In this document: positions 1,130 to 1,942 of the stretch, in pieces
Layout: the number at the start of each line of letters is the position of its first letter
How positions within the stretch are numbered: position 1 is the first letter of the stretch
From: Escherichia coli
Lineage (GTDB): Bacteria; Pseudomonadota; Gammaproteobacteria; Enterobacterales; Enterobacteriaceae
Length of the DNA stretch: 36,812 nucleotides
NCBI RefSeq assembly: GCF_003334315.1
Contig: NZ_QOWR01000048.1
Direction: 5' to 3' (one strand)
Translations under genes and position numbers: made by a program
Notes under the pieces: generated by a model
The model's input: only the letters and a program-made list of their open reading frames with translations
Told to the model about the DNA's origin: nothing
The model's database searches: none

Positions 1130-1942
1130 TCAGCACTCAACAAACTGATGCTGTTCATTAAGACGATAGCGGACTCCGGCTCGAATATTGTTTTCACCTT
1201 CAATGGCGACGGCGAAGCGAACTCTTTCGCCGTCATGATATACCAGTGCGGCGCTTCCTCCTGGCCCGAGAATAATTGAGTCGACCACGCCCGTGCTCAC
1301 TACCGTTGAATTTTCACCGCTGGCAATGATGTGTACATTGTCGCCACTGTTGGCAATTCTGGCGTTTGCGCCAAAGCTGGCGATTTGCACCAGGTCACCA
1401 TTACTGGCGACATGACATCGTTCACCCAATGTACAAACGCGTACTCGCATTCCGGTATTCGCAATCCGACTGCTATCTCCAGCGCTGCTTATCCGCGAAG
1501 AATTACCGGTTACAGCAACCCGTGCGCGTTCACCGGAGCTGCCAATGTGACTGTTAAAGCCGACACTTCCAATCCGCACGCTATAACCCATACTGGCAAT
1601 TTGCGCGGCATACCCAGCGGTTGCGATTCTGGCGTTATCCTCACAACAGCCGATGCGAGCATGATCGTCGCTGCGGGCAAACTGCCTGCAAAATGGTCTC
1701 TCTCCGGGGTCTGTGGCCAGTTTTTGCATAGAGGAAACTTCCTGATGCGCGAAGTTTTCATCCGCCAGCCATTTTTTCCACGCATACTCAACCAGACTCT
1801 CCGCCCAGTCCGTATATCCTTCCTCAATCAGTGCATGATGAATATCGGCATAACTACCGCCGCGTGGGAAATGGCGCAGGAACCAGCGATACATCACCGC
1901 TCCGATACGCCATTCTCGCAGGTCTGCTTGTGTAATGATCAT
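1130..1942 (-). CDS. ydhT: YdhT, uncharacterised protein of the ydhYVWXUT operon
   Basis: 270-aa ORF, same length as K-12 YdhT, immediately downstream of ydhU. Contains about 15 tandem 9-residue repeats (G-x-x-x-[RH]-[IV]-x-[ST]-x). Confidence 0.9.
   Translation of the reverse strand: MIITQADLREWRIGAVMYRWFLRHFPRGGSYADIHHALIEEGYTDWAESLVEYAWKKWLADENFAHQEVSSMQKLATDPGERPFCRQFARSDDHARIGCCEDNARIATAGYAAQIASMGYSVRIGSVGFNSHIGSSGERARVAVTGNSSRISSAGDSSRIANTGMRVRVCTLGERCHVASNGDLVQIASFGANARIANSGDNVHIIASGENSTVVSTGVVDSIILGPGGSAALVYHDGERVRFAVAIEGENNIRAGVRYRLNEQHQFVEC

Follow-up and report, generated by a model that had tools for sequence, protein, structure and literature searches.

The ydhT gene and the parts of its product

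The window analysed here, a stretch of 36,812 nt from Escherichia coli contig NZ_QOWR01000048.1, corresponds over its initial 9 kb to the E. coli chromosome and carries, in this order, ydhS, the minus-strand block ydhT-ydhU(phsC)-ydhX-ydhW-ydhV-ydhY, fumD and ynhH-pykF. We focus on ydhT (Table 1), which begins with an ATG 3 nt from the ydhU stop codon and faces ydhS, the stops of the two convergent genes being separated by 11 bp. The product, YdhT, matches the NCBIfam equivalog NF007410 ('protein YdhT') over residues 2–270 with 487 bits against a cutoff of 300, and RefSeq names the same gene ydhT in an identical E. coli region. A first-pass annotation, made from the sequence alone, had pointed to about 15 tandem nonapeptides between window positions 1253 and 1663 (residues 94–230) and had described ydhT as the last gene of the ydhYVWXUT operon, without an established function. 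The gene order in the window agrees with the latter description, and no role has been assigned to YdhT in the literature (PMC13328260); searches for 'ydhT' retrieved mostly unrelated acronyms, the ydhT of B. subtilis, which encodes a mannanase, or a typographical error for yhdT (PMC5120140).

Table 1. Features at and around ydhT in the window. CDS, coding sequence; ORF, open reading frame; pLDDT, predicted local distance difference test score.
Feature	Position	Strand	Description	Basis
ydhT CDS	1130..1942	-	270 codons + stop 1130-1132	ORF list, translation, RefSeq, NCBIfam NF007410
N-terminal head	1715..1942	-	residues 1-76, five-helix bundle	Pfam PF27195 'YdhT_N' (newer Pfam)
Linker, low confidence	1685..1714	-	residues ~77-86	pLDDT <50 at residues 74-83
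Beta-solenoid (predicted)	1265..1684	-	residues ~87-226; 2-3 degenerate + 13 strict nonapeptide units	
C-terminal cap	1133..1264	-	residues 227-270, PGGSAALVYHDGERVRFAVAIEGENNIRAGVRYRLNEQHQFVEC	
Upstream operon genes ydhU-ydhY together	1946..6860	-		ORFs, RefSeq names
ydhU/phsC	1946-2731	-		ORF + RefSeq name
ydhX	2728-~3396	-		ORF + RefSeq name
ydhW	3460-~4100	-		ORF + RefSeq name
ydhV	4111-6213	-		ORF + RefSeq name
ydhY	6234-6860	-		ORF + RefSeq name
Terminator-like hairpin + T-run	907..924	-	inside convergent ydhS, ~200 nt past ydhT stop	consensus scan alone

Written in consecutive nine-residue blocks, the repeat region of YdhT reads DDHARIGCC, EDNARIATA, GYAAQIASM, GYSVRIGSV, GFNSHIGSS, GERARVAVT, GNSSRISSA, GDSSRIANT, GMRVRVCTL, GERCHVASN, GDLVQIASF, GANARIANS, GDNVHIIAS, GENSTVVST and GVVDSIILG. 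The identity autocorrelation over residues 91–235 shows peaks of 0.30 (lag 9), 0.28 (lag 18) and 0.29 (lag 27), whereas every other lag up to 30 stays at or below 0.093. When the sequence was shuffled 5000 times with its composition preserved, the highest autocorrelation across lags had a mean of 0.136 (standard deviation 0.014) and a maximum of 0.21, so that the period of nine is far beyond chance. The estimate of about 15 units is thus borne out, with 13 strict units occupying residues 110–226 (window 1265–1615) and two to three degenerate ones preceding them. At the DNA level, no tandem repeat of period 27 is present within ydhT, the sole match being a 14-bp sequence occurring twice by chance, which implies that the units are old and diverged; a recent repeat expansion in E. 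coli ydhT was accordingly rejected.

The nine-residue register is conserved among orthologues. Counting backward from the cap in nines yielded 568 units in 39 proteins from Escherichia, Citrobacter, Limnobaculum, Leminorella, Budvicia, Brenneria, Serratia, Symbiopectobacterium, Edwardsiella and metagenomes. Gly occupies position 1 in 94% of these units; position 6 is Ile (70%), Val (17%) or Leu (10%), together 97%; position 5 is Arg (37%), His (14%), Gln (14%) or Lys (11%), together 76%; position 7 is Ala, Gly or Ser in 75%; and position 8 is Ser in 54%, giving the consensus G-x-x-(A/S/V)-(R/H/Q/K)-(I/V)-(A/G/S)-S-x. The Gly at position 1, the Ile/Val at position 6 and the preceding Arg/His first seen in the E. 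coli protein therefore recur across the orthologues, with Leu, Gln and Lys as additional options. Each orthologue carries 13–19 strict units, and the large length gaps between orthologues correspond approximately to whole units (about five), as in P0036, which is shorter by 45 aa, and in P0037, P0039 and P0040, which span about 49 additional columns (alignment A1). Nevertheless, the units of YdhT are not interchangeable, given that certain unit-specific residues are fixed among 16 diverse orthologues: Y111, Q114, R141, N147 and R166 in 16/16, and R139 and D183 in 15/16.

Beyond the repeat itself, our analysis adds to the first-pass annotation the three-part architecture of YdhT, its strict co-inheritance with the operon and a large, phage-borne family of solenoid-plus-cap proteins. 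Invariant columns concentrate in the cap (G228, G229, Y235, D237, G238, R240, R242, F243, E248, G249, E250, G256, Y259, H265 and F267), which is also the best-conserved segment of the wider family. The linker, by contrast, falls in a gapped region of the orthologue alignment and differs in both sequence and length. PF27195 (YdhT_N) is annotated on database clusters of YdhT, and a Pfam-A scan of the E. coli protein gave no significant domain (DUF6876, E 0.19; Asp_decarbox, E 3.9). No signal peptide is visible at the N-terminus, judging from a direct reading of the sequence with no predictor used.

An AlphaFold2 model of YdhT, built with a 13-sequence orthologue alignment, has a mean pLDDT of 84.7, with ten-residue blocks scoring 84–96 over the repeats and 91–94 at the C-terminus. 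It comprises five helices (residues 5–76), a low-confidence linker (residues 74–83), one short strand per unit between residues 87 and 236, and a C-terminal beta cap; both ends appear capped. The predicted fold class is thus the beta-solenoid that the repeat had suggested. Beta-solenoids being a well-known fold class, the fold alone is unsurprising, and a confident prediction of it is presumably already obtainable from public resources.

Several features of the model suggest how the units may be arranged. Strand lengths alternate in a 5/4/5/4 pattern over residues 150–216, and the model superposes at 2.3–3.6 Å on the beta-helices Vag8 and Ag43 (the latter named together with TibA in the fold comparison), which are built from rungs of about 19 residues; RTX blocks were matched as well. 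Furthermore, ortholog-specific conservation at positions 2–3 is greater in alternate units (means of 12.3 and 11.4 of 16 versus 8.0 and 8.5). From the alternating strand lengths, the superposition and the alternate-unit conservation, we infer that two nonapeptides form one coil of about 18 residues, resembling an RTX beta-roll without calcium. In such an arrangement, about eight coils would stack into a rod of roughly 4 nm, with Gly at each turn, the Ile/Val/Leu at position 6 and the small residue at position 4 in the core, and the Arg/His/Gln/Lys at position 5 facing outward. One edge of the rod would display the unit-specific conserved polar residues at alternate-unit turns (N147, M165-R166, D183 and D201-N202) and may serve as a partner-binding surface. 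The C-terminal cap would close the end of the solenoid.

Comparison with known repeats and solenoids

The closest parallel to the YdhT repeat is the RTX beta-roll of CyaA and HlyA (HemolysinCabind), which shares the nine-residue period forming a parallel beta-roll. However, YdhT lacks the Ca2+-binding GGxGxD loop and the acidic position 6 of the RTX motif GGxGxDxUx, has neither a C-terminal type I secretion system (T1SS) signal nor secretion genes, is cytoplasmic by sequence and possesses its own helical head and conserved cap; sequence similarity to RTX proteins is not significant. Indeed, YdhT has no Pfam match to PF00353 (HemolysinCabind), a search of the YdhT profile against all PDB sequences touched CyaA alone (E = 0.39), and the single YdhT sequence gave nothing significant against the same sequences, in keeping with the earlier statement that the repeat is not of the RTX type. 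A type I secretion context is likewise absent at ydhT, where the neighbours are ydhS and ydhU/X/W/V/Y, and the C-terminus is occupied by the cap found in phage proteins too.

Other repeat families fare no better. Autocorrelation of YdhT at lags 5, 6 and 12, as would befit pentapeptide, hexapeptide (LbH) or bactofilin repeats, does not exceed 0.093, and no Pfam match to these families was obtained, nor to Ice_nucleation (8/16-residue AGYGST-type) or Collagen (Gly-X-Y). Pentapeptide, hexapeptide, collagen and ice-nucleation repeats were therefore ruled out, the period of YdhT being nine only. The cytoplasmic two-strand-per-coil beta-helices, such as the CARP domain of CAP, RP2 and TBCC, show no sequence relationship to YdhT and differ in both repeat length and motif; the same applies to the capped solenoids of the SufD core, the MinC C-terminal domain and bactofilin. 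Both ends of YdhT are predicted to be capped. A nonapeptide solenoid free of the Ca2+ motif and furnished with its own cap is not represented among the repeat families of the Pfam library that we searched, nor did we find a paper describing one.

These comparisons bear on the idea that the repeat is a secreted or surface element, whether RTX-like and Ca2+-binding, ice-nucleation-like, collagen-like or adhesin-like. Automatic annotation has given relatives of YdhT such names as collagen-like, ice nucleation protein, 'Hemolysin IA', 'trimeric autotransporter adhesin' and 'c-type lectin precursor', misnaming them, and the repeats have weak matches in repetitive stretches of tail-fibre PHROGs. Yet YdhT carries no signal peptide, T1SS or autotransporter domain, no GGxGxD and no Pfam match to the three repeat families concerned; its period is 9 rather than 3, 8 or 16; its neighbours are respiratory genes; and its phage relatives reside in early rather than structural modules. 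These tests contradict a surface or Ca2+-binding repeat, and we give this explanation next to no weight.

A modular solenoid-plus-cap family in phages

YdhT has homologues in phages. Residues 110–270 align with positions 145–310 of the 312-position profile phrog_4433, of unknown function (E 2.3e-6), the only PHROG of the family that YdhT itself matches; phrog_27197, a 97-position model of the cap, is matched by other family members at the equivalent C-terminal segment. A tblastn search with YdhT gave matches in 11 phage records. Edwardsiella phage GF-2 gp55 aligns with 90% of YdhT, including the head, at 36% identity, and Komagataeibacter phage phiKX1_180 is 30% identical over 96%, again sharing the YdhT_N head; the similarity of Paracoccus phage Shpa gp50 is limited to the solenoid and cap. 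Among 1.84 billion cluster representatives, a search with the profile retrieved 1073 proteins at E<=1e-3, including 435 at E<=1e-10. Members of this mostly phage family have the solenoid (up to ~28 units) and cap in common, whereas their heads are swapped: the head may be YdhT_N, DUF7666 (C..C..GFH.C), the related 'CGNGLHG' type (phrog_18079), a DarG-like macro domain plus DUF7666, or others. DUF7666 (PF24703) has no match in YdhT, compared with 6–7 positives among 18 relatives, and homology between YdhT_N and DUF7666 was rejected (hhalign probability 0.5%). Literature searches for DUF7666 and PF27195 found no papers. One relative, gp30c of Acinetobacter phage fLi-Aba02, is misannotated as 'putative ADP-ribosyltransferase'.

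Two groups of database records deserve separate mention. CP025887.1 ('Escherichia phage 503046', 23 kb, unannotated) contains a full-length ydhT with 98.9% identity, and appears to be a piece of chromosome submitted under a phage name, not a genuine phage copy of ydhT. In addition, 39 plasmid records match; all are non-mobilizable and many measure ~40–60 kb, so that an origin in the leading region of conjugative plasmids was rejected, and these plasmids look phage-plasmid-like.

The genomic contexts of the phage relatives are uniform in kind: all 9 examined lie in early or lysogeny regions and none in a structural one. GF-2 gp55 (L002:6001-7047) directly follows the N antiterminator gene, as does the DUF7666-headed ES18 gp53 (L013:4986-5834), which is followed in turn by a terminator, cIII and kil; SEN22_35 (L055:3486-4631), also DUF7666-headed, is located after N and sieB in SEN22. 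These three genes belong to the early-left operon of their phages. The phiKX1 relative lies after an antirepressor gene, that of Shpa after a helicase/primase gene, that of fLi-Aba02 on the cI side near xis/int, that of Pseudomonas phi2 in the early region, that of cyanophage Pan4 between DNA methylase genes and the integrase gene, and that of a metagenomic phage contig downstream of a cI-like helix-turn-helix gene. Within GF-2 gp55, a 27-bp unit is repeated 20.9 times at 89% identity (L002:6279-6843), so that solenoid copies expand and contract at the DNA level in phages, unlike in E. coli ydhT. In an evolution experiment with Serratia symbiotica, a 1413-nt 'ydhT_1' lost 54 bp, equal to two units (PMC12505973); going by the table coordinates of that study, this gene appears to lie inside a mitomycin-inducible prophage.

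The phage head-solenoid-cap proteins (ES18 gp53, GF-2 gp55, phrog_4433/18079/27197) are homologous to YdhT over the solenoid and cap, but most have a head unrelated to YdhT_N and some carry a macro or other extra domain. They also differ from YdhT in their near-identical units, their conserved head Cys and their setting in early regions rather than in a respiratory operon. Phage-type YdhT_N heads keep the motif W-x-A-C-x-[DE]-G, with the Cys present in 31/33 and the Gly in 30/33 (alignment A4, column of YdhT residue 14), whereas both residues are lost in operon-type heads (0/13), suggesting a changed function of the latter.

The company kept by some relatives raises the question of phage–host conflict. 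Two metagenomic proteins, P0071 (546 aa) and P0076 (490 aa), are fusions of a DarG-like macro domain with DUF7666, solenoid and cap; the macro domain of P0071 matches the PADLOC model of DarG (E 1.9e-20) as well as Pfam Macro. Such fusions hint, at the level of domain composition, that the family acts in ADP-ribosylation-type conflict between phage and host. The main rival to the reading that we favour below sees ydhT as a phage accessory gene, domesticated or hitch-hiking, whose real function lies in phage–host or phage–phage conflict, be it exclusion, anti-defence or host takeover, and which would ride at the 3' end of an FNR-controlled operon merely for its expression. The macro fusions would fit such a role, as would the homologue with the same head, solenoid and cap just after N in GF-2, the DUF7666-headed versions in the same slot in ES18 and beside sieB in SEN22, the fast divergence of YdhT (see below) and an AbiEii/AbiEi toxin–antitoxin (abortive infection) pair encoded directly downstream of ydhT in one metagenome contig (L008:9273-11037). 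Against this stand the presence of the region at >=80% coverage in 5403/5426 complete E. coli genomes, so that ydhT occurs in essentially all of them, the invariable position of the gene in the operon across genera and chromosomal sites, its retention in Edwardsiella where ydhU is lost, the disappearance of the W-x-A-C-x-[DE]-G Cys from operon-type heads and the lack of a match to PADLOC defence models for YdhT, which extends to its plain phage relatives. On balance, we consider a conflict function rather unlikely; the remaining alternatives are minor.

Operon linkage and the proposed role of YdhT

The gene ydhT consistently accompanies its upstream neighbours. A scan with a YdhW profile of one genome per species (GTDB) yielded 39 loci, which represent some nine genera of the Enterobacterales (Escherichia, Citrobacter, Limnobaculum, Leminorella, Budvicia, Brenneria, Serratia, Symbiopectobacterium and Raoultella), and in 39/39 of these YdhW-anchored loci ydhY-V-W-X-U is followed directly by a ydhT homologue. 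Three of the 39 loci are incomplete, one at a contig end, one in a second operon copy disrupted by remnants resembling an insertion sequence (IS), and one, partial, in a Symbiopectobacterium symbiont. In the same scan, the YdhW/YdhT pair was found in Enterobacterales only. The Edwardsiella operon has the order ydhY-V-W-X-T, with ydhU missing and ydhT kept (L005, Edwardsiella tarda CP100802.1). The neighbourhood of the operon varies by genus: in Edwardsiella its neighbour is nap, whereas Brenneria-like contigs carry it between glpD-like and glgP genes. Citrobacter sp. NCU1 has two copies of the ydhYVWXU locus, L025 and L034; within the second copy (L034:11146-12200), ydhT breaks off after ~34 codons, and the ORF fragments behind it look, by eye, like remnants of an insertion element.

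The operon encodes a Class V WOR-type enzyme that is periplasm-oriented and dependent on twin-arginine translocation (Tat); according to a 2026 classification of WORs, which treats YdhWXUT as merely additional operon genes beside the enzyme, none of the Class V members has a known role (PMC13328260). UniProt-derived names call YdhT orthologues 'oxidoreductase subunit', raising the possibility that the Ydh complex contains YdhT as a stoichiometric structural subunit, which would be co-exported in folded form by Tat with YdhX or YdhY and act as a periplasmic spacer or anchor. Tat can export folded partner proteins, and the co-inheritance of the operon would be as expected. Furthermore, YdhV also lacks a signal peptide although the complex is predicted to be periplasmic (PMC4257093, PMC13328260). 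Nevertheless, a rod that varies between 13 and 19 units and diverges fast would be unusual for a subunit of a fixed complex, and Class V WORs outside Enterobacterales have other subunit sets (PMC13328260), the YdhW/YdhT pair being confined to Enterobacterales in our scan. This explanation appears improbable to us. A further one, by analogy with the beta-helical core of SufB/SufD, would cast YdhT as an Fe-S or cofactor assembly scaffold for the cluster-rich YdhY, YdhX and YdhV. However, Suf proteins match the YdhT fold no better than dozens of unrelated beta-helices, the solenoid has no invariant Cys or His, no SufC-like ATPase is encoded nearby and the phage homologues occur without any such context, so that a Suf-like scaffold is very improbable.

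The reading that we favour, with a probability of roughly 0.55, is that YdhT is a soluble, non-catalytic rod of three parts, serving as a cytoplasmic accessory to the Ydh oxidoreductase and captured from a phage. Specifically, the five-helix head (YdhT_N), a solenoid of ~15–16 nonapeptides and the conserved cap would together form a rod that, in Enterobacterales, may assist in the assembly, escort or scaffolding of the Tat-exported Ydh enzyme without being one of its redox subunits, and the gene would have been captured from a phage early gene. The orthologue alignment contains no invariant Cys or cofactor motif, making a redox or Fe-S role of YdhT itself unlikely. The proposed role is analogous to that of the redox enzyme maturation proteins TorD, DmsD, NarJ and NapD, which are likewise non-catalytic, cytoplasmic and operon-encoded; like YdhT, they co-occur with a Tat-dependent pyranopterin enzyme and evolve faster than the catalytic subunits. 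The analogy does not extend to the fold, as the TorD family is all-helical and NapD is ferredoxin-like, both wholly unlike YdhT, the role of which is read from gene order only.

Several considerations weigh against this reading. The accessory role derives from gene order, which vertical inheritance of the block could partly explain. Between genera, identity to the E. coli protein is 36–70% for YdhT, 43–66% for YdhW and 78–94% for YdhV, so that both YdhT and YdhW diverge much faster than YdhV. YdhT also outpaces YdhX and YdhY (66–94% for these two and YdhV together), a pattern that fits an accessory protein but also a weakly constrained passenger. The YdhT head has no recognisable homologue. 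The phage relatives lie where genes for host takeover or exclusion are typically found, which would place their function outside respiration, and the direction of transfer, from phage to chromosome, is argued solely from the breadth of distribution. Finally, the number of residues per coil, the handedness of the solenoid and its 'conserved edge' are read indirectly from the model.

A more far-reaching proposal, possible if doubtful, would be that YdhT is the domesticated chromosomal descendant of an undescribed class of phage early proteins, characterised by a variable head, a rod adjustable in length by slippage of 27-bp units, a cap and a slot just after N, which would act as host-manipulation or counter-defence effectors; shorn of the Cys, one such protein may have been recruited as an assembly or regulatory factor of the Class V enzyme (YdhV).

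Some further features of the window and its counterparts can be noted. The terminator-like hairpin inside ydhS is a candidate terminator of the operon, as judged from its sequence. The ydhS-ydhT pair is listed among the 'excludon' pairs detected by RNA-seq (PMC12288877), and a peak of RcdA binding in systematic evolution of ligands by exponential enrichment (SELEX) falls within ydhT (PMC3535384). Whereas ydhV is whole in the window, an IS1A insertion splits it in the best-matching complete genomes, for example NZ_CP148277 (L001:4407-7286). Elsewhere in the window, Rfam gathering-level matches to small RNAs correspond to RprA (22755-22862, plus strand, 115 bits) and rydB (17091-17151, minus strand, 82 bits).

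Overall, the novelty lies in the nonapeptide solenoid-plus-cap module, in the modular phage family built on it and in the strict tie of YdhT to the Class V WOR operon. Together they provide the first concrete handle on YdhT. E. coli has a single Class V WOR/AOR operon, in which YdhT and YdhW are the two orphan proteins; the co-inheritance in 39/39 loci and the retention of ydhT where ydhU is lost predict a phenotype in maturation or assembly. A gene of the E. coli core is thereby also connected with a large group of modular early proteins of phages, encoded in the ral/sieB-type slot after N, among which new functions in host takeover or anti-defence may plausibly be sought.

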